A stretch of DNA of 64,000 nucleotides from an uncultured delta proteobacterium. GTDB taxonomy: Bacteria; Desulfobacterota; Binatia; UBA9968. Shown here one piece after another: positions 29,618-63,278 of the stretch (position 1 is its first letter; each line of letters starts with the position of its first letter). The notes under the pieces were generated by a model. The model had not been told where the DNA came from. It made no database searches and worked only from the letters and a program-made list of their open reading frames with translations. The stretch spans positions 53,189 through 117,188 of the forward strand of contig CAVWLW010000050.1 in NCBI GenBank assembly GCA_963755715.1, read 5' to 3'. Position numbers and translations under genes: made by a program.

Positions 29618-30076
29618 AGATCTACCCTCCTGGTTTTCGGGTCGGCAAAATTGCTTGTCGCCCAGCCTCGCGAACACATAGCTCGAATTTCAAAAATAAC
29701 CTCGCAATTTGGCGCACCACCGATTAAACCATCCACCCTGCCGTATGCGCAGCCTCTCTCATGAGGACTCGGTAAAACGCCCGCAAGCGTTATTTCATGC
29801 GAGCCTAACCTGCGTGGTAGGAGATTGCTGTCCAATATTGGACAGGCTTGAGAATAATTATTCGTGTAGGTTTGACCGACCGCCGGGACGAGAATATCGC
29901 TGCAACGCTTGTGATACGATGATACGAGTTAGCACCGCTCTTCTCGAATCCTGTGCAGGAGAGAGTGAAGCAGAAATCAGAAGCTTAACGTTAGGAGGGA
30001 GAAATTATGGGGTCCGACTTCTACGACTCAACTATCTCGTTCAGCCGCTCGATCTCCCGTCTGGCCGTATCATTTG

Positions 30077-30205
30077 CTTGCACCCGATCGCTCAGCCGTG
30101 CGCAGCAAGGTCGCGAGTGTCGCCATGTCTCTGCCAAAATAGGCCGCCACATCGCTTAACCGGTAGCCAAGTCTCCGAACCAATACGTACGCCGCTATCG
30201 TGCGC
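30077..30205 (-). pseudogene. RAYT-family transposase C-terminal (HTH-like) remnant
   Basis: The minus-strand frame gives IAAYVLVRRLGYRLSDVAAYFGRDMATLATLLRTAERSGASK*. This is closely similar to the fragment at 49803-50078 (ALVGYVLIRRLGYKLKDVAKCLGRDVATVSSLVSRF) and to the C-terminus of the intact RAYT (..HGYRLNEIASHLDVHYATVSRRLKRIE). Confidence 0.4.
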
Positions 30206-30329
30206 GCCTAAACGCGAGACCGAGTTTCCGCGACGGAGCGAATCGCAACATTAGTGGGCGATTGAAACGGTTGTCCGGCGGGATTGAGATCGCTTTCAAT
30301 CCGCGCGGCATTCTTGCTTCCATTTTAAA

Positions 30330-30497
30330 TTATTTTTTCGCGGCTTGCTGTTTCTCTAGCAGTTGTAAAACATTTTTCTTGGCTTCGTCGGGTTTTTTAC
30401 CCGATGCGCTTGCCGCTTCTTCGAATGTCTTGTTGGTGATGTTTTTGGAATTGCCCATGTCATCATCCGGCTTTTGGCATCCACAGTTATAACACAT
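30330..30497 (-). CDS. small Cys-containing hypothetical protein (55 aa)
   Basis: AAGGAGGAAG lies 9 nt upstream of the ATG. Product: MCYNCGCQKPDDDMGNSKNITNKTFEEAASASGKKPDEAKKNVLQLLEKQQAAKK. N-terminal CxxCxC cluster with a Lys-rich tail. No family recognised. Confidence 0.4.
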   Translation of the reverse strand: MCYNCGCQKPDDDMGNSKNITNKTFEEAASASGKKPDEAKKNVLQLLEKQQAAKK

Positions 30498-31306
30498 AGA
30501 TTGCTTCCTCCTTGTCGTGGAAGGGGCAAGCATTGTGCCACCACTAAGGAACCTCTGTGGGAGGACAAAACTGAGGAAAATCATATACTGGCGCGGTGAT
30601 GGAAGATGAATTTGTCGGCTTTCACATAAAGTTTGTAAGTATATTGCCGCCGATTCTGGCGGGACAGCAATGCACCCAACCGCGCGCGACCAGGCGCAGC
30701 TCTGCTGACGGCAATCCGAATCCCAAGAAGCTGCTTGCTCCGACCCAGGAAGATTTCTCAGTTCAGATTTGAAGATGCGGTTTTTTAGTACGCCACCGAC
30801 AAATGAAGTCGGCGTTGTAGCGAACGGGACGAAAGTCGCCCGCCGCTGATAGTCACCGCCACGAGGTGGGGATTCAGAACGAGCGGATGATCGACCCGAC
30901 GATGGTGAGGCTGCCGAACCATTCAACGGTTTAACGAATCGATTCTTACTGTTGCCTGGCGCCTCACGCCCCTTCGAGGATGCAGGTGACGAGGGCGGCA
31001 TTTCAGACTGGGTGAGCCTGAATAAACAGGTCACTGACACAAAAAGCCACACCCTCGTCACCAACTCTTATATTCGTTTCTCTCCGCTCCCGCTAGCTGC
31101 TAAATTCCAATGGTAGACCCCATAGCTTTCCCCCAATCGTTTTTTAATCAACGCGGAGCCGCTAGTTCGTTCGGGTTGGCGTCGAACGCCTTTTACGAAC
31201 CGCACAGACCTTACAATCTGCACAATCTGTGTGCGTCTGCTTGACAGCTTTCGCTGTGATCGATTATTCCCGAAGCTCAGGAGATTGTACTGGAGGGAGG
31301 GCAGGC

Positions 31307-32290: not shown

Positions 32291-32350
32291 GCAGGTCCAT
32301 ACTCTCTCTAACCGCCGCCTATGGCGGCGAAGATCGCGTACATCATTCTT

Positions 32351-32647
32351 TCACAGTATGTAATCGAGCACGCACAGACCAAAGCGTTTCTTCGCCTCGA
32401 AAATCCAATGCCGGGAATAGCGGCGGTCATGCACCAACGTTAAGAATTTCTGAACCTTGAATCTTCGAGAGAAGTCCGAACTGAACGTTTTGAACGCTCC
32501 GGCGTCTTTTACCTTGAACTTATGAACGCCCGCACTCTGGGGCTTGTATCGAAGATGCCTTGGTCCGAACTGGACAAGTTCGCCGAGAACTGCTGAATCG
32601 AAGTGAGAAGCTGCTTTGGTCCGACCGGAGTTCTTGAAGTGACGCAA
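32351..32647 (-). pseudogene. RAYT/IS200-like transposase 5' fragment (copy 2), terminated after ..FEAKKRFGLCVLDYIL*
   Basis: The minus-strand ORF ends HDRRYSRHWIFEAKKRFGLCVLDYIL. It contains the 35-bp sequence gaccaaagcgtttcttcgcctcgaaaatccaatgc at 32377-32411, which is 31/35 identical to 34047-34081 at the other side of the TIR gene. Confidence 0.4.
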
Positions 32648-32782
32648 GCGTTGTCGTTCAGGTCGAACTCACCAGAAGGCTTAAGCCTCGAGAGTTCCTT
32701 GAGCTAGTCGTAGCTTCTGGATCCAGATGCGGGTAACTGTACGTACTAGTCGACTCTTAAGACAGTTGCTATTGCCCCGCAC

Positions 32783-33937
32783 CTATTCGAGCGCACCGAG
32801 CAATTGGAATTCATAGACACCCACAGAACTAAAGCCGTGAGAAGATATGACCTTAACTTTCAGATACCGTGCTTTCACGGGCGGGAACTTGAACTCCTGA
32901 TAGGGTTCTTTGAAAAACCGGATGTTCTGCGTCTGAAACTTGCCGATTGACTCGAATTTTCCCGTAGCAGAATCATTTCCTGCCAGCAGCTCGAACTCTT
33001 TCAAATTCCAGCTCTCCGTACCAAGGATCAGTACCTTGAATGTATCGAAGGTTGCTGGCTTATCATTTTTGAATCCGTAAACGGCCCAACTGCCGACAAC
33101 ACCGATGTCGATGTACTGCCAATTTTTCTCATCACCGTCGATGGCGTAGGGCCATTGATCGTTGGTGGCAACAACAACGTGGCCGCCGTTTTCTGCAGAA
33201 AGCACATTCATGACAGATGATCGAGGTTGTGTCGAAGGCGCCGGCTTGGCTACTGAGGCAGCCTGCTCTTCTGTCCCTCCGGGGCCAGGTTTTGTCGGAG
33301 CGGGGGCAATATTCGTCATCGATGGAGTCGACTGCACCTGGTTTTGCGATTGAGGATGTTGCTTTTCGAAAAAACCGGTTTGGTGAAGCACCGCAAGCGA
33401 ACCAATTACGCCAGCTACGACTCCCGCCAAAACACCCCACATTGTCTTCGACCAATGCCGCGACCGCACTTCGGTATCGGTTGGGATCTGTCTTGGTTGA
33501 ACCGGGGCACTGCCATCCACCATGCCGGCGACGATCCGCATTAATTGATCGAACTCACGATGAGAAGACTCACCCTGCCAATCGGAGAGATCTGCTGCTT
33601 CGATTCTCTTGAACTCGAGGGGAATTTTGACGTTATCGATCAACGCCGGCACGAGAATTCCTCGCTCCGCACCCTCAGCTGCTTCCGTTTTCACCCAACG
33701 GGACGACACAGAGGCTTTAGACCAGAGAACAACCACACAGCGGGCCGAGCTCAACGCATTCTCGATCGTCTCGTCAAACGACTTGCCGGGCGGAATCTCT
33801 CGGTCCCACCAAACAGACCAACCCTTCTGCGAAAATGCATTCGCAAGCAGCTCAGCTTTCTCCTTATCTGCTCTCGCATAGCTGATAAAAATATCACTCA
33901 TGGGGGCCATGATGATTCCATGCCGAACGGAATGCAA
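32783..33937 (-). CDS. TIR-domain protein with central TM segment and C-terminal discoidin/F5-8 type C-like domain
   Basis: N-terminal DIFISYARADKEKAELLANAFSQKGWSVWWDREIPPGKSF..CVVVLWSKASVSSRWVKTEA matches the bacterial TIR (TIR_2) pattern. TM helix MWGVLAGVVAGVIGSLAVL. The C-terminal ~130 aa (..NWQYIDIG..ARYLKVKV..VGVYEFQLLG) looks like a galactose-binding/discoidin domain. The exact start is uncertain: TTG 33937 directly follows the upstream ORF's TGA, and ATGs at 33910 and 33901 are alternatives. Confidence 0.75.
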   Translation of the reverse strand: MHSVRHGIIMAPMSDIFISYARADKEKAELLANAFSQKGWSVWWDREIPPGKSFDETIENALSSARCVVVLWSKASVSSRWVKTEAAEGAERGILVPALIDNVKIPLEFKRIEAADLSDWQGESSHREFDQLMRIVAGMVDGSAPVQPRQIPTDTEVRSRHWSKTMWGVLAGVVAGVIGSLAVLHQTGFFEKQHPQSQNQVQSTPSMTNIAPAPTKPGPGGTEEQAASVAKPAPSTQPRSSVMNVLSAENGGHVVVATNDQWPYAIDGDEKNWQYIDIGVVGSWAVYGFKNDKPATFDTFKVLILGTESWNLKEFELLAGNDSATGKFESIGKFQTQNIRFFKEPYQEFKFPPVKARYLKVKVISSHGFSSVGVYEFQLLGALE

Positions 33938-34200
33938 TCACTCCTGCGCGGTGCGCCCCGCGTTGAGCTGCATGCTCTCGGCGATAACGTTTGGACCTGT
34001 GTCTTTGACCAGTAGGTGAACGTGGTTGGACGTGACCATGTAGTTCAGCACGGAAAGACCGAAGCGCTTCTTCGCCTCGAAAACCTAATGCAGATACGCT
34101 GTCGATCGTGTGCAACGTCTTGAAAAATTCGGTCTTCTGATGATTGTTGACCGGTGAAGTTGTTTCCTGAACTATTGCCTGTTGCCTCGTGCTTAATGCC
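33938..34200 (-). pseudogene. RAYT/IS200-like Y1 transposase 5' fragment (copy 1) retaining the HuH motif, ending at a TGA abutting the TIR gene
   Basis: The minus-strand frame gives ..FEAKKRFGLSVLNYMVTSNHVHLLVKDTGPNVIAESMQLNAGRTAQE*. NHVHLLV is the HuH signature, comparable to ..AYCLMANHYHLLVE.. in the intact RAYT at 45255-46079. Upstream degenerate codons (GIKHEATGNSSGN) match the IYHxTxRGN N-terminal motif. Confidence 0.5.
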
Positions 34201-34512
34201 TATTTTCGTGCCAGATATGGCCTGGCAGAGAGTGACGGTTCGCGCGCGGCATCGTTTCCCTTAGAGCCTGCCTTTCGGCTTCAAAAAGCCGCCTCTAAGC
34301 CTTTATTTAAAGGATGCCTTTTATGCTACCGTGGAGTTGTGAAATCAACAGCTTCCCTTGGTCCGACCCGCGACCCTGACTCAGATAGTACGCACCGGGA
34401 ATGAGAATGCGTAATGGTCGCGCCATTGCCACCTTCTTTATTATAGACATTAGCTCATCGTCGAGAAATAAAAGTCTGATCATCCTTGCATGCCAGATAG
34501 TCCTGCAAATTG

Positions 34513-36399: not shown

Positions 36400-36620
36400 A
36401 AGCAGCGCCTTCCCCGGATACCTGCTGTCAGCGCCCTGCTTGGCTGCGCTTTGCCCGGTCATCGAGGGGCGGACCCAAGTGGTTGAACGATTGAAACAAT
36501 TGGAACGACTGGAACTCTTACCTTCGGACTGTTGCCTGTTTCCTAATGGCTGTTGCCAATTCGTGGGAACTTTGAACGGTCGCTGTCTTGCAGCACAGGG
36601 TTGTGATGAACGAGGGCGAT
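36400..36620 (-). pseudogene. heavily degraded RAYT remnant (..GNRQQ.. and EFQSFQLFQSFN segments)
   Basis: Minus-strand translations give ..PLGNRQQ.. (matching the RGNxRQ N-terminal motif) and EFQSFQLFQSFN (a triplicated version of the TQSFN motif). It shares gttgcctgtt / ggaac word content with the remnants at 37.9k, 40.9k and 58.5k. Confidence 0.3.
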
Positions 36621-37899: not shown

Positions 37900-38357
37900 G
37901 ATTTTCAAGCCACTGGAACCACTGAAACGATTGGAACACATGGAACCGCTCTTCGGGTGTAGAACGTTTTGAACGGACCCCGGACTAGATCCGGGGAATT
38001 GACGGCTTGAACGATTTGGACAAATCCTATTTACGTTGAACTTTTGAACCGTTGAACGCGTCTTTTCTTACCACGCCTCACCCTTCACCCCTCACTCCTC
38101 ACGCTGACTTTGATCTACTGTTGCCTGTTGCCTCGTGCCTTATGCCTATTTACGATGTGATTGACACCTTCTCCCGTCGGCGATATTTCTTTCGCAAGAG
38201 ATTGAGAGTGTTTCAAATTTCTGATACCGAACTCGGTGGATACTCGGAGAATCGAACATAGCGCTGATTCGTACCGTCCTTCGAGCCAGTGGCCTAACCG
38301 GTTGTTGAAAAACCTGATTTCAGGCTGTTCAAAAAGGTCCAGATGCGAGGCGCGCAT
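37900..38357 (-). pseudogene. RAYT 5' remnant (N-terminal motif ..GVNHIVNRHKARGNRQQ* followed by degenerate FQSFQWFQ segment)
   Basis: ORF 38115-38357(-) ends ..TGEGVNHIVNRHKARGNRQQ* (compare PGAIYHLTGRGNARQ in the intact RAYT). Downstream, 37905-37945 encodes RFHVFQSFQWFQ, which is TQSFN-like. 38112-38150 (ctactgttgcctgttgcctcgtgccttatgcctattt) recurs at 34170 and 58748. Confidence 0.4.
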
Positions 38358-40714: not shown

Positions 40715-41250
40715 CTATGTCCTCGCATCTTCGAAGCTTTCATTCCAGAAGACAGCGGATTTGAAGCCATAGACCTCGCTCTCTTCGCGTAACACATGCG
40801 TTTCCTCAAACTGCTCGACTTCACGATGCATCGCTTTGCTGTCGAGCTCGCCTTTGATCGTCTCAGCAAAGCCAAGCTGCCAACCGCGATCGCTTCGGAG
40901 CAACGCTTCACGTTGAACATTGAACCTTGAACTTTGAACGACCGTTTATCTGAAACGTCTTGAACGGAGCGTATCCTTCGACCAGCTCAGAGCCCGTCCT
41001 GAGTTTTATCGAAGGAAAGAGCGGAAGATCGAGCCGGTCATGGTGAGCCTACCGAACCATTAAACGACTGGAACGTTTGGAACCGTTGGAACGTCTGGAA
41101 CTCCCGTAAACGATTTGAACGGTTTGAACGATTGGAACGGGCTACGGTATTCGTTGGCACGGACCATGTTGAGATCCATGTAGATCAGACAGCGATGCAG
41201 GTGCTCGTCGGTCTCAATGGCAGTGGCATGATATTAAGTCAATAACTTAA
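40715..41250 (-). pseudogene. RAYT remnant (LNPVRA-like region, triplicated TFQ/SFN segment, middle region)
   Basis: 41160-41250(-) encodes ..YMDLNMVRANEYR.. (compare YIVLNPARV). 41040-41150(-) encodes NRLREFQTFQRFQTFQSFNGS. 40715-40903(-) encodes ..LGFAETIKGELDSKAMHREVEQFEETHVLRE.., homologous to the fragment at 39146-39463. Confidence 0.45.
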
Positions 41251-41367
41251 CTCATGCCTGACCCCAATTCTGCGATCTTCCTCTAACTCGTCCCGCCTCG
41301 AGGGATTCCGAGTTGCCAAAGTCCGGGCACCGAACGTAATGTCAGTCCTTCACGATTTGCCAATCGT

Positions 41368-43980
41368 TCACGGCGTCCCGATCAAGCCGTTGGATTGGAT
41401 GTTAAAGCCGTTCATCAACCATATCGCAACCGCCCCGGAAATCTGTCGCCACAGGATATCGCTCTTGCCGTCACCGTTGAAGTCACCGGTGCCGGCGATT
41501 TGCCAATCGTTTCCCGGCGTCCCGACCAAGCCGTTGGCTTGGATGTTAAAGCCGTTCATCAACCATATCGCAACCGCCCCGGAAATCTGTCGCCACAGGA
41601 TATCGCTCTTGCCGTCACCGTTGAAGTCACCGGTGCCGGCGATTTGCCATTCGTTTCCCGGCGTCCCGACCAAGCCGTTGGCTTGGATGTTAAAGCCGTT
41701 CATCAACCATATCGCAACCGCCCCGGAAATGTGTCGCCACAGGATATCGCTCTTGCCGTCACCGTTGAAGTCACCGGTGCCGGCGATTTGCCATTCGTTT
41801 CCCGGCGTCCCGACCAAGCCGTTGGCTTGGATGTTAAAGCCGTTCATCAACCATATCGCAACCGCCCCGGAAATCTGTCGCCACAGGATATCGCTCTTGC
41901 CGTCACCGTTGAAGTCACCGGTGCCGGCGATTTGCCAACCGTTTCCCGGCGTCCCGACCAAGGCGTTGGATTGGATGTTAAAGCCGTTCATCAACCATAT
42001 CGCAACCGCCCCGGAAATGTGTCGCCACAGGATATCGCTCTTGCCGTCACCGTTGAAGTCACCGGTGCCGGCGATTTGCCAACCGTTTCCCGGCGTCCCG
42101 ACCAAGGCGTTGGATTGGATGTTAAAGCCGTTCATCAACCATATCGCAACCGCCCCGGAAATGTGTCGCCACAGGATATCGCTCTTGCCGTCACCGTTGA
42201 AGTCACCGGTGCCGGCGATTTGCCAATCGCTCTCCGCTGTCCCCAAGTCAAGCGCCGCGCCGGTGGCCCAGTTACCTGAGGTTGCGCCGGTGATAAGCTG
42301 ATTGAAGCCCCAGGCGGCCGCCGTGCTTGACGGGTCGATTTGGGTCGCCGAATAATCTCCCCAGCGACATGAAGCACTGGTCTTTTCGTTGGATACTGTG
42401 TTGCACGGGACAAAGCGAACGCCATCAAACTCCACGGTGAACTGAGTTGCCGACGTTGCGACAACGTCAAAAGTATACCCCGCGCTCGATGAGTTCGGAC
42501 CGCGGAACATGAGCATGGCTGCATTGCCGGTCGGAGCTCCCTGCGATGGCCACGTGCGCGTCGCTGTGACGAACGCATCTGCGGCGTTGGTCGCAACCGA
42601 CGGATTGAACACGTTATCGTCAGACGCAGTAAACAGATCTATTGTGAACAGCGGAGCCGTGCCCGTCGTCGAGAACTGGTAGAGCCGAGCCACAGCACGG
42701 CCATTGTTCACGGCGTGGACGTTCCATAGGGACGTTCCGTTCTGAATGCTGGCGGATTGGAAGCGACCATCCAGAGTGTCGAGCCTCTGACCGTTGGGTT
42801 GTGCAGCATCCGGCGCAGCCGTCCATGCCGTGACCGTGATCGGCGATGTGGTGCTCAACGTATCGGAACCGACACTGGCGCCCTCAGTGAGCTGATACCG
42901 CGTGATCGAGTTGCCGGAGCCCGAGCCCGGCGAGAGGAAGTACGGCGTCGTGCTGGAATCCTGGACGAGCGGAGGCGCGATATTAAACACCAAGTCGTTG
43001 AAGCATATGGCGCTAGGTGCTGTGCCGACGAGTGATGGCGCCTTATCGATCGAAATGATCGCCCCCCTCACCGTGGTGATGCCGAAATCGTTCGCCGTGA
43101 TGAACCAGCGCGCGCTGCTATATCCGGCGCTTGGATAGTCCCAGGAGCGGTTGGCTGCTTGTTTGCAAAAAAATGAGCCTCCTTGGCTGAGAAAGAAACG
43201 ATACTGGAACCACGTGGTACCAGTGTTGTCGGTGGAAACGGCGAAGTATTGGAACTGATCAGCGTTGGTGCTGTCGTCCGAGTCCGCCGATACAAAGAAG
43301 CGGTCCACCGCGGGATCGTAGAGCACACGCGGATCGAACAATGTCTGGGTTGCCGGAATCGAAAAAGCATTGAAAAAGGTCTTCAGCGATACTTTGCTGA
43401 CCAGCGCGCAGTTTGTCTTGTTGTAAACGCCGACCTCGACGTTCGTCACCGTAACGATGTTGGCTGGGCCGGCCGCACCGTGAATGTCGGACGGCAAAAA
43501 CCCCACCGCCGAGTTCGTCTGACAACTGGGCGGGACAGTTGGCGATTCCGACGGCGGCGGCTGCGGCGCACTTGTGAACGGGCCTTGCCGTTGTGCGGGC
43601 GCAACAGGCTGGTTCGTCTTGATCTGCCCCAGCGCGTCATCACCGATCGGGATTCGCCTGTGAATCGCTCTCGGGGACACATCCTGTTCGGACATGAGCA
43701 TGTCTTCGGACATGATCATGCCCAGGGGCATCTGGTAGGTCCCGCCGCCGATTGCTGTCTGGATCTGGACTTGAGCTTGCGCAGCACCCGATGGGCCGAT
43801 GAGTACGAAGCCTGAGGCTAGTCCAACGAGACGGACCAGCCAGAGGGCGATCCACCTTACGCTTCGGCTTGATGCTCTTTGAAAACTATAGTTGGCCACG
43901 TCACAACTCTGGAGTTCACAAGCACATAATCCAAGCTCGTGGCCCAGGTCAAACAGTCCTGACTCAGCCTGACCGTGCAC
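41368..43980 (-). CDS. secreted protein with N-terminal uncharacterised domain and six C-terminal FG-GAP/VCBS-like repeats
   Basis: 870-aa ORF. A signal-peptide-like segment (RWIALWLVRLVGLASGFVLIGPSGAAQAQ) follows a possible alternative GTG start. The C-terminal third is six copies of QIAGTGDFNGDGKSDILWR(H/Q)ISGAVAIWLMNGFNIQ(S/A)N(A/G)LVGTPGN(G/E/D)W. Confidence 0.7.
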   Translation of the reverse strand: MHGQAESGLFDLGHELGLCACELQSCDVANYSFQRASSRSVRWIALWLVRLVGLASGFVLIGPSGAAQAQVQIQTAIGGGTYQMPLGMIMSEDMLMSEQDVSPRAIHRRIPIGDDALGQIKTNQPVAPAQRQGPFTSAPQPPPSESPTVPPSCQTNSAVGFLPSDIHGAAGPANIVTVTNVEVGVYNKTNCALVSKVSLKTFFNAFSIPATQTLFDPRVLYDPAVDRFFVSADSDDSTNADQFQYFAVSTDNTGTTWFQYRFFLSQGGSFFCKQAANRSWDYPSAGYSSARWFITANDFGITTVRGAIISIDKAPSLVGTAPSAICFNDLVFNIAPPLVQDSSTTPYFLSPGSGSGNSITRYQLTEGASVGSDTLSTTSPITVTAWTAAPDAAQPNGQRLDTLDGRFQSASIQNGTSLWNVHAVNNGRAVARLYQFSTTGTAPLFTIDLFTASDDNVFNPSVATNAADAFVTATRTWPSQGAPTGNAAMLMFRGPNSSSAGYTFDVVATSATQFTVEFDGVRFVPCNTVSNEKTSASCRWGDYSATQIDPSSTAAAWGFNQLITGATSGNWATGAALDLGTAESDWQIAGTGDFNGDGKSDILWRHISGAVAIWLMNGFNIQSNALVGTPGNGWQIAGTGDFNGDGKSDILWRHISGAVAIWLMNGFNIQSNALVGTPGNGWQIAGTGDFNGDGKSDILWRQISGAVAIWLMNGFNIQANGLVGTPGNEWQIAGTGDFNGDGKSDILWRHISGAVAIWLMNGFNIQANGLVGTPGNEWQIAGTGDFNGDGKSDILWRQISGAVAIWLMNGFNIQANGLVGTPGNDWQIAGTGDFNGDGKSDILWRQISGAVAIWLMNGFNIQSNGLIGTP
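41383..42300 (-). repeat. six and a half tandem 141-bp coding repeats (near-identical at DNA level)
   Basis: The unit gccgttggattggatgttaaagccgttcatcaaccatatcgcaaccgccccggaaatctgtcgccacaggatatcgctcttgccgtcaccgttgaagtcaccggtgccggcgatttgccaatcgtttcccggcgtcccgaccaa recurs at 141-bp spacing, with only a handful of substitutions per copy. Confidence 0.85.
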
Positions 43981-44095
43981 TGCGGAGGCGGTGAAGCTAG
44001 CCGGGCTAACGGTTGCTTTTTCTTCCAGACTCTAAAACACCGAGTCCGATTTACGTGAACTTTAAACCTTGAACCTTGAATGGGCGCAAGCCATT

Positions 44096-45254: not shown

Positions 45255-46079
45255 TCAATTCGCTTCCTCGATTCGTTTGAGTCTGCGGCTCACCGTCGCG
45301 TAGTGGACATCCAAGTGCGAGGCGATCTCGTTGAGCCGATATCCATGCGCGTACGCCTCGGCGATCGCCTTTTCGCCACTCTTTGCAAATATCCGCTGCA
45401 GCGAGGGCGTAGCCGCTCTCAATTGCGCGCGCGGTATCTCCTTAACGTCCTTTTTACCAGAAGCGTGTTTCTCGATGAACGCTTCACTTCCCAAGTAGAT
45501 CTGACCCTTGAGATCGTCCCACGGCCGACTCGCCATTCCGTCCCTGACGAACTCCCGATATCGCTGCTGTGCTCTTGATCGGCTCTTGCCAAATTGCTCC
45601 AGAATCCAGTCGGTGTGCAGAAACTCCGGCACGGATGCGAGTCCCGCGGTGGCCCGGTAACTGCTCCATTTCCAAGTGGATGCTTTGGCGCTGCTCTTGA
45701 CCCGCGCGGGATTGAGCACGATGTACCGACATAGTTCCAACAGATGCGAATCCCTTTCTACCAGGATCGCCTTGAATCGCCCCTGAAACAGATGTCCAAC
45801 CCGGTTGTGCCGGCGGTTAAAACTTTGCGTGTAAATGCCGTTGAGCTGGCGCATGCCGATCGAAAGGTTCGCCTTGGGCGTCTCCACCAGCAAGTGATAA
45901 TGATTGGCCATCAAGCAGTAGGCGCGGCAGATCCAGTGGTAGCGAGTCACCACCCCGGTCAGTGTGCTCAGAAACAACTCGCGGTCGGCGTCAGTAAAAA
46001 ACACTTTCTGCCGCGCGTTGCCGCGGCCCGTCAGATGATAGATCGCACCGGGAAACTCTAATCGCAGAGGGCGCGCCAT
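45255..46079 (-). CDS. REP-associated tyrosine transposase (RAYT; IS200-like Y1 HuH transposase, COG1943-type) with C-terminal HTH extension, apparently intact
   Basis: 274 aa with no internal stops. MARPLRLEFPGAIYHLTGRGNARQKVFFTDADRELF..YCLMANHYHLLVETP (HuH) ..GIYTQSFNRRHNRVGHLFQGRF (catalytic Tyr region) ..YIVLNPARV..WKWSSY.., then the C-terminal ..HGYRLNEIASHLDVHYATVSRRLKRIEE. Confidence 0.85.
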   Translation of the reverse strand: MARPLRLEFPGAIYHLTGRGNARQKVFFTDADRELFLSTLTGVVTRYHWICRAYCLMANHYHLLVETPKANLSIGMRQLNGIYTQSFNRRHNRVGHLFQGRFKAILVERDSHLLELCRYIVLNPARVKSSAKASTWKWSSYRATAGLASVPEFLHTDWILEQFGKSRSRAQQRYREFVRDGMASRPWDDLKGQIYLGSEAFIEKHASGKKDVKEIPRAQLRAATPSLQRIFAKSGEKAIAEAYAHGYRLNEIASHLDVHYATVSRRLKRIEEAN

Positions 46080-48125: not shown

Positions 48126-48438
48126 TAAGAAAACGCTCACCGCGGAGGCCTTCAAATCACGATGAATTTCCAAGGGGAGAAATTACGGTGTCTACCATCG
48201 GAATTTAGCAGGTAGCAGGATCTAAGAGAATCCTGTAAAGAGATTCTTGACGAGGGTGTGGCTCTTGGGGTCAGTGGCCTGTTTATTCAGGCTCACCCAG
48301 TCTGAAATGCCGCCCTCGTCACCTGCATCATCCGAGGGTCGACCGGGATGGTGCCATATTCTCTCACCAGAATACGTGGCTCTGTAAGTAGACGAGACCG
48401 AAGGATGATGAAATCTCGATCTACGAAGGAGGAGCTAC

Positions 48439-58140: not shown

Positions 58141-58780
58141 ACGCTGCAACACAAACCGACGATGCGTGGCGTGCCCGCTCGACATCGGGACTTCGGTACA
58201 GGCGTTCGGGAATTTGTCTTAGAGACAGGCTACTTTTCTTCTCGCTGCGCGGTCGGCCGCGTGATCGCAATGTGCTTCCAAGTCCGAAAGTCTCAGCTAT
58301 TTCCCTTTGCCATTCTGAGTGACCGTACGATCTTTGCCGATTCAGGCATTCCCGTACTGCCACCACTTGCAACTCGTCCAACGGATTTTTCAACTGCACC
58401 GACCACGAATTCTCTTCATCCGTAGGCAGGCGATCTATAAGCTGCCTTCGCAGAACGCCGCCCGCTGCCCTTTGCGCAGGGTTGTATTCCTGGGTAACGG
58501 GGCCAGAAACTACACTTTGCACATTGAACCTTGAACCGGCGATCGTTCTATGGCCTATTGCCTTCATCCTTGCCTCAAGTCTATCTTGAGTGAAGCGCTG
58601 GAAGGTTGAAAGGGTTCCGTTTGGGAACATTGAAACTTTGAACGATCTCCGGCGTTAAACGTCTTGAACGGACTAGATTCGGGGGATCGCACGGCTTGAA
58701 CGATTTGAATTCTCCCGAGTATTACGTTGAGCTTTGAACCTTGAACCATCTCTTTACTGTTGCCTCATCCCTATTCGCTT
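58139..58780 (-). pseudogene. RAYT remnant (catalytic-Tyr region through C-terminal ..FGLGSTLRSRGRPRSEKK; degenerate N-terminal motif at 58748-58775)
   Basis: MFPNGTLSTFQRFTQ..IGHRTIAGSRFNVQSVV..YNPAQRA..ENSWSV.. aligns with LNGIYTQSFNRRH..GHLFQGRFKAILV..LNPARV..WKWSSY of the intact RAYT. 58620-58750 shares the gttcaa-rich ~170-bp architecture with 37940-38110. Confidence 0.45.
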
Positions 58781-62051: not shown

Positions 62052-62768
62052 GGGGAGTGCCTCCTGAAGTGAGGATGCGTTAAGATCCCAGGGACCTTTA
62101 GACGATCACTTTCAATGGCGAATTACAAGAAGCCGTAGAGTCCTTTCGGTTCGCCGTCGACGACCCAGACGCAGTATGCTGTCGACCCCGAACATCGGCG
62201 CCATTGCAGCTTGCCAGACCGCTTTTCCGAACGATCTCTCCCGGTTCAGTCGGTCACGAACCACGCGCACGAACATGGGCTTTGTGATTCTTCCTCGCGG
62301 AATTCTCGCCACGAAGCGCTTCTCTAACAGGAGTGATAAAAAATTATCAAGATTGTCAAGATTAGAAAGTCTGGCCCTGCGCTCTCCCCTTTCTTTGAGT
62401 CCTCGCGTCAGGAAAGCCGAGCTGGGTCAAGCTAAAAGAATTGTCTTGAATAAAAAGCGTGAGCCACCTCACGCCTGCCTTTACATTTCGACGTTTCGAG
62501 AATTCCCGAAACGTGGAAGTTCGTTCAAGGATTGAAAAGGCTCACAATGAAAAAGTAAGTGATGTGCCAGCCGTACCCAGGAAGAAAATGGCGGTTGGCG
62601 CGCGGCATCGCTGGCTCTTAGAGTAAATGATTCAACCTCAAAAAGTGGACGCTAAGCCTCTAATCGACGCCTATATCACAAACTTATGTCGGGGAATCAA
62701 GATCTTGCGCTGTCCGACCGGCGAGATGTTTCCCTAGAAATTCTGACCCTGTCGTTTCCCCTCTCGGA

Positions 62769-63278
62769 TCATCTTCCCGCCGCGCGCGCTCCAGTTTGTC
62801 CGTCCTGATACCCGAGCGCGCGCGCAATCCAGGCATCAACGCTGACTCTTCCCGGTCCGGAGCAGATTAACCAGACCAAGATGATGATATACATGGTTTC
62901 AGGCAGATAGAGGAAATCGTCGAGCCAGTCGAGAAACGAGAGCCCTTTCGAAATCGTCGCAAGCTGCACCGTCGTGATCGCGACGATCATCTGGATGATA
63001 AGAGCAGCGCAGCACAGGCTCGAAAGCAACCCGATGACGAGCAGGCAGCCGCTGATGAACTCGACCGAGGAGACGAAATAAGTCATGAAATGCGGAAAAG
63101 GAATTCCGGCGCCGGCGAGGGTTTCATACATCCGGCGGGTGTGGCTGGCGACGAAGAGCTTGTTTCCTCCCGAAATGGCGAAAAACATTCCGAGCAAAAC
63201 GCGGGCGAGTAGGATCGAAAATTGCTCCCACGAACGGTTTCCGAGCAGCACTGACCGGATCAATGCATCAGGCTTCAT
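62769..63278 (-). CDS. DoxX-family membrane protein
   Basis: Starts at the internal ATG 63278 (MKPDALIRSVLLGNRSWEQFSILLARVLLGMFFAISGGNKLF.. = DoxX N-terminal pattern). Four TM segments. Confidence 0.65.
   Translation of the reverse strand: MKPDALIRSVLLGNRSWEQFSILLARVLLGMFFAISGGNKLFVASHTRRMYETLAGAGIPFPHFMTYFVSSVEFISGCLLVIGLLSSLCCAALIIQMIVAITTVQLATISKGLSFLDWLDDFLYLPETMYIIILVWLICSGPGRVSVDAWIARALGYQDGQTGARAAGR

Follow-up and report, generated by a model that had tools for sequence, protein, structure and literature searches.

The window, a 64,000-nucleotide stretch of DNA from an uncultured delta proteobacterium, carries on its minus strand a gene (32783..33901, stop codon TAG 32783-32785) for a 372-aa protein made up of a TIR domain, a transmembrane (TM) helix, a linker, and a beta-sandwich. 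The mechanical open reading frame is longer (32783-33937, 384 aa) and reaches back to a TTG at 33937, which had been taken as the start codon in the original prediction. We consider this TTG an artefact of ORF calling, as it is merely the first possible start past the preceding stop. Homologues begin MSDIFISY, matching the ATG at 33901, which is the true start, and three related loci (L008-L010) have ATA in place of the upstream ATG. The TIR domain itself (33512..33901, aa 1-130) was delimited from Pfam, the invariant columns of the family alignment, and alignment to PDB structures, and its match to TIR_2 (PF13676), which spans aa 16-132 of the 384-aa ORF, is strong (92.1 bits, E=4.8e-26; the cutoff is 28), as had been expected of this ORF. 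The conserved catalytic glutamate, Glu73 in the 372-aa numbering, falls within the motif RWVKTE (W-x-x-x-E), is invariant across 24 homologues, and aligns with the W..E catalytic motif of solved TIR NADases (PDB 7uxr and PdTIR 3h16; 8g83 also aligned). The TIR domain is probably an NAD+-cleaving enzyme.

The single TM helix (MWGVLAGVVAGVIGSLAVL, 33386..33442, aa 154-172) coincides with the Kyte-Doolittle maximum of 2.15. It is preceded by three K/R residues and followed by one, and because of this excess N-terminal of the helix, the TIR domain is predicted to be cytoplasmic and the C-terminus to lie outside, a topology of N-in, C-out. The helix gives way to a linker of ~60 aa rich in P, Q, S, T, and A (33206..33385) that varies among homologues and is disordered in the AlphaFold model. 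The full-length model is poor (pLDDT 63, with the TM helix and linker below 30), and we therefore modelled the C-terminal domain by itself. This domain (32786..33205) was then predicted with high confidence (pLDDT 93.8) as a galactose-binding-like beta-sandwich of the discoidin/CBM32/SUN type. Foldseek against the PDB returned matches at a probability of 1.00 (TMq 0.66-0.77, E about 1e-7 to 3e-8) to the CBMs of GH92 and chitobiase enzymes and to SUN1/2 (7nsn, 3f2z, 4lks, SUN2 4dxr, and others). Only the fold search succeeded: a profile sequence search of the domain against the PDB gave no matches, and the domain fell below the Pfam thresholds for F5_F8_type_C (16.8 against 28.2) and Sad1_UNC (17.6 against 22). 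Multi-copy relatives do score above threshold, as in P0347, which reaches 100 bits with Sad1_UNC. The predicted three-part architecture of TIR, TM helix, and discoidin-like domain was borne out in this way, with Pfam detecting the first part and structural comparison the last. Sequence identity to solved CBMs is 11-19%, so binding residues are not transferable from them. Elsewhere the outer domain is found with a TM anchor of its own and in fusions with vWA modules. Its putative ligand is a glycan or protein of the envelope.

Conservation in the family extends over the whole length of the protein: full-length members at 64-99% identity form more than 120 clusters, and clustering at 50% identity leaves at least 28. 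Its architecture had been called uncommon; that description fits its absence from curated defence models but not its abundance, and the architecture is uncharacterised yet not rare. The TIR gene is under purifying selection, with a dN/dS of 0.13-0.20 against seven homologues. Taken together, the conserved family, the purifying selection, and the confidently modelled outer domain make the protein directly testable. In agreement with the original prediction, no partner gene was conserved across the gene contexts of homologous loci. PADLOC models found no matches in 10 neighbouring genes, and Pfam assigned these neighbours to metabolism and transport, plus one Zeta_toxin-like gene 4.6 kb away. 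The TIR gene is outside any defence island. PADLOC and NCBIfam searches with the TIR protein gave domain-level matches only and no system assignment. Rfam and tRNA scans of the region returned nothing, which indicates that there is no tRNA-linked island and no known riboregulator here.

Most of the bacterial TIR systems that have been studied sense intracellular events. The protein shares the TIR fold and catalytic motif with ThsB of Thoeris and with the TIR effectors of CBASS and Pycsar, and its first ~80 residues give partial HMM matches to ThsB, SAVED_TIR, and ThcB4. Unlike Thoeris, there is no adjacent ThsA-like effector, and the ThcB4 match reaches 41.8 bits against a cutoff of 220. Unlike CBASS and Pycsar, the SAVED_TIR model is matched by the TIR part only (aa 3-76), and neither a sensor (SAVED, STING, or cNMP-binding) nor a cyclase gene was found within ~10 kb. 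The protein differs from all three in being membrane-anchored with a predicted outside domain. Closer in organization are the single-gene bacterial TIR antiphage proteins, which include a TIR and TM type tested in E. coli (PMC11350192). The likeness covers the stand-alone gene, the N-terminal TIR domain with a conserved Glu, and the membrane-spanning segment, and it ends at the large predicted extracytoplasmic discoidin/SUN-like domain and at the setting of the gene, which is outside a defence island and apparently inherited vertically in a soil lineage. Purely by analogy, a single-pass protein with a cytoplasmic TIR domain and an extracytoplasmic ligand-binding domain would resemble Toll-like and IL-1 receptors, although the domain order is reversed relative to Toll-like receptors and the outer domain is neither LRR nor Ig. 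The N-in, C-out topology with a C-terminal SUN-like beta-sandwich is likewise analogous to SUN1/2. Neither likeness implies homology past the domain folds.

Immediately ahead of the gene is a conserved 38-nt element (33902..33939, minus strand) with the pattern GATTG[C/A]ATTC..GGCATGGAATCATCAT[G/A]..ATG, recognized by comparison of loci. It is kept in loci at 70-100% amino acid identity, independent of the DNA further upstream. A scan for sigma-70 promoters and terminators did not call this element, so a promoter role rests on inference; it is a candidate for the gene's own core promoter, giving a leaderless or short-leader mRNA. On the other side of the gene, a 41-nt 3' flank (32742..32782, minus strand) is kept in all locus-1 haplotypes.

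The 5' edge of the 38-nt element coincides with a junction at 33938/33939, beyond which transposase-derived sequence begins. Here, directly upstream of the TIR ORF and in the same frame, lies a Y1_Tnp-like fragment with a HuH motif (VFEAKKRFGLSVLNYMVTSNHVHLLVKDTGPNVIAESMQLNAGRTAQE, closed by TGA 33938-33940), which we refer to as RAYT-A. The middle part of this pseudogene (33938..34129, minus strand) corresponds to family residues ~25-87 and retains the HuH sequence NHVHLLV. It is interrupted by an internal TAG at 34085-34087 and ends in GRTAQE and the TGA, upstream of the position of the catalytic Tyr. By sequence comparison, we located its N-terminus (MPRANRHSLPGHIWH, 34208-34252) and 5' region on the same strand (34208..34368); the 5' region, about 115-170 nt, is common to all copies of the element. 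The hairpin just ahead of the RAYT-A ATG is weak (z = -1.9), with z of about -2 in two of three copies. A short dispersed 38-nt repeat of family D9 (34171..34208, minus strand), with other copies at 38117-38154 and 36528-36565, splits RAYT-A directly after codon 15. The upstream remnant is larger than the ~50 codons first reported, since its N-terminus and 5' region are present too, broken up by stops and the 38-nt repeat. A short ORF at 34310..34426 (minus strand) begins with ~20 codons (MARPLRILIPGAYYLSQGRG) like the N-terminus of a second type of Y1 transposase, which is intact at 45255-46079 (tblastn E=3e-5 to 45993-46079). The ORF is probably the remnant that received the RAYT-A insertion.

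Downstream of the TIR gene lies a second pseudogene fragment, RAYT-B (SRRFKVQKFLTLVHDRRYSRHWIFEAKKRFGLCVLDYIL, closed by a stop; 32345..32470, minus strand), which spans family residues ~17-59 and is cut off before the HuH motif. Its reading frame at 32354-32470 closes with RHWIFEAKKRFGLCVLDYIL and a stop, and the convergent SBP gene has its stop codon ~60 nt away. The 5' part of RAYT-B has decayed into an indel-polymorphic filler (32412..32741, minus strand), in which TCGGACCAARGCANCTTC is present twice along with GTTCAA-type repeats. The two fragments account for the direct repeat that had been noticed around the gene. A 35-bp match with 31/35 identity had been reported, and the identity was right, but its register is 32377-32411 against 34057-34091, not 34047-34081. 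DNA alignment extends the match to 54 nt (32358-32411 against 34038-34091; 45/54 identical, 83%) in direct orientation, 1680 bp apart. A 28-mer with at most three mismatches was seen twice where 0 were expected, placing the repeat far beyond chance. The downstream copy is separated from the TIR stop codon by 372 nt, so it does not lie immediately 3' of the gene, as had been claimed. On alignment, the 54-nt repeat corresponds to a homologous coding stretch of two paralogous pseudogenes.

The Y1/RAYT-like identity of these flanks is supported by way of relatives. With Y1_Tnp, the fragment in the window scored 20.3 bits against a cutoff of 23, with the HuH sequence NHVHLL present, and relatives 77-79% identical to it scored 45-48 bits. 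The best NCBIfam model was REP_Tyr_transpos, at 55-57 bits for the best relatives, short of the RAYT equivalog cutoff of 80 bits. The signature of this Y1 family reads MPRANRHFLPGH...RYHATAIE.... In fuller relatives, the catalytic Tyr of the RYH motif is found at residue ~103; RAYT-A ends at 87 and RAYT-B at ~59, so neither encodes a functional enzyme. With IS200/IS605 TnpA and RAYT proteins the fragments share an HuH motif, a hairpin before the start codon, and probable membership in the Y1 HuH superfamily, and they differ from them in that both copies in the window are cut before the catalytic Tyr and that the RAYT equivalog cutoff was missed. Among ~170 fetched loci we found no intact copy of this element, and the best 120 database matches to it are all 76-136 aa and mostly frameshifted. 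Searches for REP arrays and right-end structures of the RAYT-like element found none. One candidate for a REP-like genome-wide repeat, GGTCGGACCAA, was rejected, as it gave 5 matches against 1.2 expected.

How the gene came to lie between these remnants is best judged from related loci. In part of them (L005/L007, L008-L010, L100, L101, L106, and L117), the gene and the same 38-nt upstream element stand in contexts free of RAYT fragments. The original prediction had named such contigs as counting against it, and in part they do. Homologous sequence between the window and these RAYT-free contigs runs from 33939, precisely at the junction, to the TIR stop codon. RAYT sequence is absent beside the gene in all relatives below ~88% identity, as in more distant Binatia-type genomes. 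The RAYT-free relatives share an APH...TIR...CBS or SBP context, which suggests vertical descent. Sister lineages keep remnants of the 3' end of fragment A at the same junction. L092 retains ~55 nt of it and L116 ~23 nt, and in L087-89 and L093 the traces are shorter (possibly ~21 and 11 nt) and open to more dispute. Such graded remnants at one junction point to a single origin followed by erosion. Closer still, the order SBP-TIR-HpaB is fixed in 14/14 contigs that are 98-99% identical, and yet the spacers within it vary freely among these contigs: that of RAYT-A has at least six lengths (~320-720 nt) and that of RAYT-B at least four (170, 400, 492, and 518 nt). The counterpart of 32412..32741 is 9 bp in L002-4 and ~205 bp with a recognisable RAYT N-terminus in L006, and the RAYT-B filler is 108 bp shorter in L153/154/156.

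We favor, with a probability of roughly 0.7, the reading that this is an ordinary, vertically inherited gene of an uncharacterised family with a presumed envelope sensor-effector function, and that the RAYT fragments are dead debris joined to it by an old deletion. In the ancestor of one Binatia-type sub-lineage, a proliferating Y1 (IS200/RAYT-like) element would have had a copy upstream of the TIR gene, and the junction at 33938/33939 would be the scar of a deletion that took out all sequence between codon 88 of the transposase and the upstream element of the TIR gene. A second copy, RAYT-B, truncated at codon 59, would have come to lie downstream. Both copies would then have decayed through stop codons, small insertions, and many deletions, while the TIR gene, carrying its own 38-nt upstream element, would have needed nothing from its neighbours.

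The original prediction had instead suggested cargo capture or replacement within an IS200/RAYT-type element, with mobilisation by the transposase remnant. In this reading, the TIR gene took the place of the 3' half of a Y1/RAYT element, and a transposase acting in trans moves it, or once did, as a non-autonomous unit, for instance by one-ended or read-through 'peel and paste' transposition from the left end. This we regard as improbable, although one sister MAG (L001/L006) speaks in its favor. There, a unit of RAYT 5' region, fragment A, and TIR gene is present twice with an identical junction, at the SBP/HpaB locus and at a second site after an AMP-binding gene, so remnant and gene moved or were duplicated together at least once. 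All element copies share a 5' boundary, and the left edge of the duplication comes to within ~10-20 nt of it, a hint that the element end was involved, and further truncated 5' ends of the element are scattered in the window (62555-62770) and in related loci. However, the two copies are homologous no further than the TIR stop codon, with no shared sequence, 3' end, or hairpin after it, and on the left side the duplication includes ~10 nt of apparent flank. A single lineage holds both of the known sites, the only two, and an intact transposase of the family that could act in trans was not found. The same lack of a right end bracketing the TIR gene, with only the 5' region shared, separates this unit from a passenger-carrying IS200/IS605 element. 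Together with the RAYT-free contigs, the missing catalytic Tyr, and flanking fragments that are indel-polymorphic as neutral DNA would be, these observations argue against mobilisation by the transposase remnant. The two copies are 95% identical in the TIR gene and 77-92% identical in the RAYT part; the latter, set beside a dS of 0.14 in the gene, fits one old duplication. A dS of 0.85 in fragment A had raised the question of gene conversion between the TIR loci, which the column-wise identity profile led us to reject. Nor did a WD40 gene take the place of the second TIR copy in L002: it lies on the upstream side of the same RAYT 5' remnant, which is also where this contig comes to its end.

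Slightly less probable again is that the 3' end of fragment A was recruited as regulatory DNA of the TIR gene, as an upstream promoter element or operator. Such exaptation would account for the persistence of the last 20-55 nt while the remainder was replaced, and the remnants in sister lineages are indeed kept beside upstream DNA that is otherwise unrelated; fragment A and the TIR ORF also share one frame with a single TGA between them. In remnant-free relatives, however, the gene is just as intact and equally constrained, and remnant length varies freely. A shared frame has a one-in-three chance of arising, and in the window stop codons precede fragment A in its frame. It is very unlikely that the RAYT direct repeats form a cassette whose TIR segment loops out and in by homologous recombination between copies: their direct orientation at a distance of 1680 bp and the dispersed RAYT copies as possible landing sites would allow it, but 54 nt at 83% identity is a poor RecA-type substrate, downstream of the TIR copy at the second locus there is no RAYT fragment, and the TIR gene is present in 14/14 near-identical contigs, among which a search with the exact SBP and HpaB proteins found no empty-site allele and no hybrid-RAYT allele was seen.

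Under our preferred reading of vertical inheritance beside decaying debris, the 'embedded' TIR gene is a product of ordinary genome decay and not a new route for the mobilisation of defence genes. The remaining interest then lies in the protein family, in which a signal from outside the cytoplasm would couple directly to NAD+ chemistry. A change in the ligand state of the outer domain may alter the clustering of the membrane-tethered TIR domains, and this in turn could switch on NAD+ hydrolysis or production of an ADPR-type signal, making the protein a one-component envelope sensor-effector. That the TIR-TM-discoidin/SUN-like family as a whole consists of one-component transmembrane receptors and that, as a separate matter, the left ends of dead RAYT copies may now and then take neighbouring genes with them to new loci is a tentative proposal, to which we give perhaps one chance in a few. 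If it were true, a lectin-like domain exposed at the envelope would pass news of events at the surface inward by switching on a cytoplasmic TIR NADase or signal synthase. Phage adsorption, glycan damage, and kin contact are conceivable events of this kind, and the family would be a functional bacterial counterpart of Toll-like receptors with its polarity reversed. As for the debris itself, the near-identical strains hold a natural series of decaying Y1-transposase remnants that could serve for estimates of deletion dynamics.

A minus-strand ORF running from 33937 to 32783 is present in the window, and its N-terminus matches Pfam TIR_2 (92 bits, E=4.8e-26). The original prediction placed its start at TTG 33937, a purely mechanical call that we rejected because homologues begin further in. 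Most start at MSDIFISY, which corresponds to ATG 33901, and seven near-identical database proteins start at ATG 33910; the upstream ATG is ATA in more distant loci. The 372-aa protein has four parts: a TIR domain (aa 1-130, TIR_2), a single hydrophobic helix (aa 154-172, with three K/R before and one after), a P/Q/S/T/A-rich linker of ~60 aa that varies among homologues, and a C-terminal domain of ~140 aa modelled as a beta-sandwich. An alignment of homologues revealed an invariant Glu in the TIR motif RWVKTE, a motif matched by W..E in TIR NADases of known structure (7uxr, PdTIR 3h16, AbTIR 8g83). The C-terminal domain has only sub-threshold matches to Sad1_UNC and F5_F8_type_C (Pfam). Modelled alone with 45 homologues (pLDDT 93.8), it superposes on CBM32/F5-8C modules and SUN1/2 domains (TMq 0.66-0.77, probability 1.0), so the TIR, TM and discoidin-like architecture first proposed is right. 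With a dN/dS of 0.13-0.20, the TIR gene is under purifying selection.

Directly before the gene, a frame terminating in TGA at 33938-33940 encodes VFEAKKRFGLSVLNYMVTSNHVHLLVKDTGPNVIAESMQLNAGRTAQE and carries an internal TAG upstream. This pseudogene of a Y1 (IS200/RAYT-like) transposase, fragment A, has VFEAKKRFGLSVLNYMVTSNHVHLLVKDTGPNVIAESMQLNAGRTAQE alone scoring 20.3 bits against Y1_Tnp, slightly below the cutoff; relatives with 77-79% identity score 45-48 bits, and their top match is NCBIfam REP_Tyr_transpos, yet under its cutoff. The same frame contains a 38-nt dispersed repeat (34171-34208) and the N-terminus MPRANRHSLPGHIWH (34208-34252), and its 5' region of ~115 nt is common to all copies of the RAYT-like element. 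Upstream of fragment A (34367-34426) lies the beginning of a gene for a second Y1-transposase type, MARPLRILIPGAYYLSQGRG, resembling the first ~20 codons of an apparently intact 274-aa ORF of that type at 45255-46079 (minus strand, MARPLRLEFPGAIYHLTGRGNARQ...). That ORF contains Y1_Tnp (48 bits) and a C-terminal HTH; among NCBIfam models REP_Tyr_transpos fits it best, at 72 bits where the cutoff is 80. A second fragment, RAYT-B (32345-32470, family residues ~17-59), lies downstream of the TIR gene and has 54 nt in common with fragment A (45/54 identical). The 35-nt flanking repeat originally described holds at 31/35 identity once its register is corrected to 32377-32411 versus 34057-34091, and its second copy starts 372 nt past the TIR stop codon rather than immediately 3' of the gene.

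The RYH tyrosine of fuller relatives lies beyond the end of both fragments, and therefore neither is able to encode an active enzyme. The ~170 fetched loci contain no intact copy of the Y1 element, and its best 120 database matches are 76-136 aa long, many of them visibly frameshifted. Truncated left ends are scattered in the genome: at 62555-62770 (minus strand) an isolated 5' end of the RAYT-like element found beside the TIR gene consists of the shared upstream region and MPRANRHFLPGYGWH, followed by unrelated sequence. A stem-loop lies just upstream of the RAYT start codon (34245-34305, minus strand; 7225-7290 in L006, a contig of the sister MAG), with CUUAGAG pairing with CUCUAAG across the likely ribosome-binding site (z ~ -1.9 to -2.1). 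In a second RAYT copy the arms differ and complementarity is kept; the fold is absent from the copy at 62.6 kb. This stem-loop resembles the known translational stem-loop of IS200.

The same gene occurs with no RAYT fragment in the homologous loci L005/L007 (87% nt identity), L008-L010 (~81% nt), L100, L101, L106 and L117, where homology to the window begins exactly at 33939 and stops at the stop codon. From 33939, a 38-nt element (GATTG[C/A]ATTC...GGCATGGAATCATCAT[G/A]..ATG) is kept across 70-100% aa identity, independent of the upstream DNA. Because a Shine-Dalgarno sequence is absent before the start, we read this element as a putative core promoter of the TIR gene itself, with a short or absent leader; a consensus promoter scan did not call it, so its promoter role is one that we infer. 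Common neighbours of the RAYT-free relatives, Nitroreductase/APH upstream and CBS or NMT1-type SBP downstream, suggest vertical descent.

Elsewhere, the 3' end of fragment A is kept at the same junction in graded lengths, ~55 nt in L092 and ~23 nt in L116, with possible traces of ~21 nt in L087-89 and ~11 nt in L093 and unrelated DNA beyond. Such grading at one junction implies that it probably arose once, in the ancestor of the clade with ~88-100% identity, and was then eroded from the 5' side. Gene order is invariant (SBP-TIR-HpaB in 14/14 contigs, 98-99% identical), and the remnants differ in length. The segment 34091-34498 is 408 bp in the window versus 38 bp in L006, and 32412-32741 is 330 bp versus 9 bp in L002-4, with ~205 bp and a recognisable RAYT-B N-terminus in L006 and an equivalent 108 bp shorter in L153/154/156; the spacer from TIR start to HpaB has at least six lengths, from ~320 to 720 nt. 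This variation has the pattern of unconstrained DNA, unlike the TIR gene. Given the RAYT-free loci, the freely varying remnants and the lack of an intact element among the fetched loci, the proposal that the gene is embedded in a transposase and mobilised as its cargo is mostly not borne out. The underlying observation is real, with its details corrected, and the arrangement is most readily explained by a deletion that joined a resident gene to Y1-transposase pseudogenes in decay.

Linkage of remnant and gene has one observation in its favour, in L001/L006 of the sister MAG (uncultured delta proteobacterium MFD04850.bin.2.104, the closest relative of the window at 98% nt identity). There, the unit of RAYT 5' region, fragment A and TIR gene is present twice with an identical junction, once at the SBP/HpaB locus and once after an AMP-binding gene. 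The copies have ~95% identity in the gene, 77-92% in the pseudogene part and random identity past the stop codon, which fits one segmental duplication of old date. A less likely origin of the second copy is aberrant transposition starting at the element's left end: the left edge of the duplication lies at most ~10-20 nt from the 5' boundary common to all element copies, but the two copies have no right end in common. The SBP/HpaB copy in L006 (6010-7125), otherwise 98% identical, is interrupted at codon 298 by an in-frame stop; the second copy on that contig is intact. This stop could mark a paralogue being lost as a pseudogene, or an assembly error.

The full-length TIR family comprises >120 clusters (64-99% identity); its fuller members are from Candidatus Binatia MAGs, and a 51% identical relative is in a Methylococcaceae MAG. 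A profile of the TM helix, linker and beta-sandwich matched 726 cluster representatives (50% identity). Among the best 150 of these, 28 carry a TIR domain like that of the window (typically 355-420 aa, one with three tandem outer domains), 60 have the TM anchor and domain only (~230 aa), and others have one to four domain copies fused to vWA or FecR-vWA. With this many clusters and TIR-bearing representatives, the architecture said to be uncommon is uncharacterised but not rare. As first noted, the gene has no partner: there is no conserved neighbour, 0/10 neighbouring genes match PADLOC, and no curated defence model covers the protein beyond its TIR domain. Single-gene TIR proteins, among them a TIR+TM type, showed antiphage activity in E. 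coli (PMC11350192), and a recent Thoeris survey left out standalone TIRs on purpose (bioRxiv 10.64898/2025.12.03.692087). We consider the family a modestly interesting, putative variant of stand-alone TIR proteins. The predicted N-in, C-out topology would put the TIR domain on the cytoplasmic side, with access to NAD+, and the outer domain may recognise a glycan or protein of the envelope; on ligand binding, the tethered TIR domains could cluster and so start NAD+ hydrolysis or ADPR-type signalling. The role may be antiphage defence, envelope surveillance or another one; vertical inheritance and a location outside defence islands make a classical mobile defence gene slightly less likely.

The region is rearrangement-prone among very close strains, since gene order past HpaB varies among contigs with identical HpaB proteins (L160-L169), the variants including an IS110-type transposase, an extra HpaB paralogue, isochorismatase, aldo-keto reductase and Y1_Tnp-HTH. 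Contig L154 (99.6% identical) lacks a ~1.1-kb segment, 30015-31119, whose 244-aa ORF has no Pfam match. Synteny of the window with L001/L002/L006 breaks exactly at 31134, and the 168-nt sequence 30967-31134 recurs inverted at 48174-48341 with 82% identity. Short arrays of 9-nt period on TTGAAC/TGGAAC (e.g. GAACGATTGAAACAATTGGAACGACTGGAAC) recur between genes, both in this genome and in related ones: at 36476-36515, 37907-37946, 38000-38060, 41062-41138, 44059-44086 and 58514-58541 in the window, and upstream of TIR genes in L087 and L115. They often coincide with sites of rearrangement or indels and may represent a REP-like or regulator-site family. Within an 870-aa FG-GAP-repeat ORF (41368-43980, minus strand), a 144-nt unit is repeated seven times in tandem (41223-42386, core 95-98% identical) and encodes 48-aa repeats; a RAYT-type 3' fragment, YHATAIETDEHLHRCLIYMDLNMVRAN (41153-41233), abuts this array.
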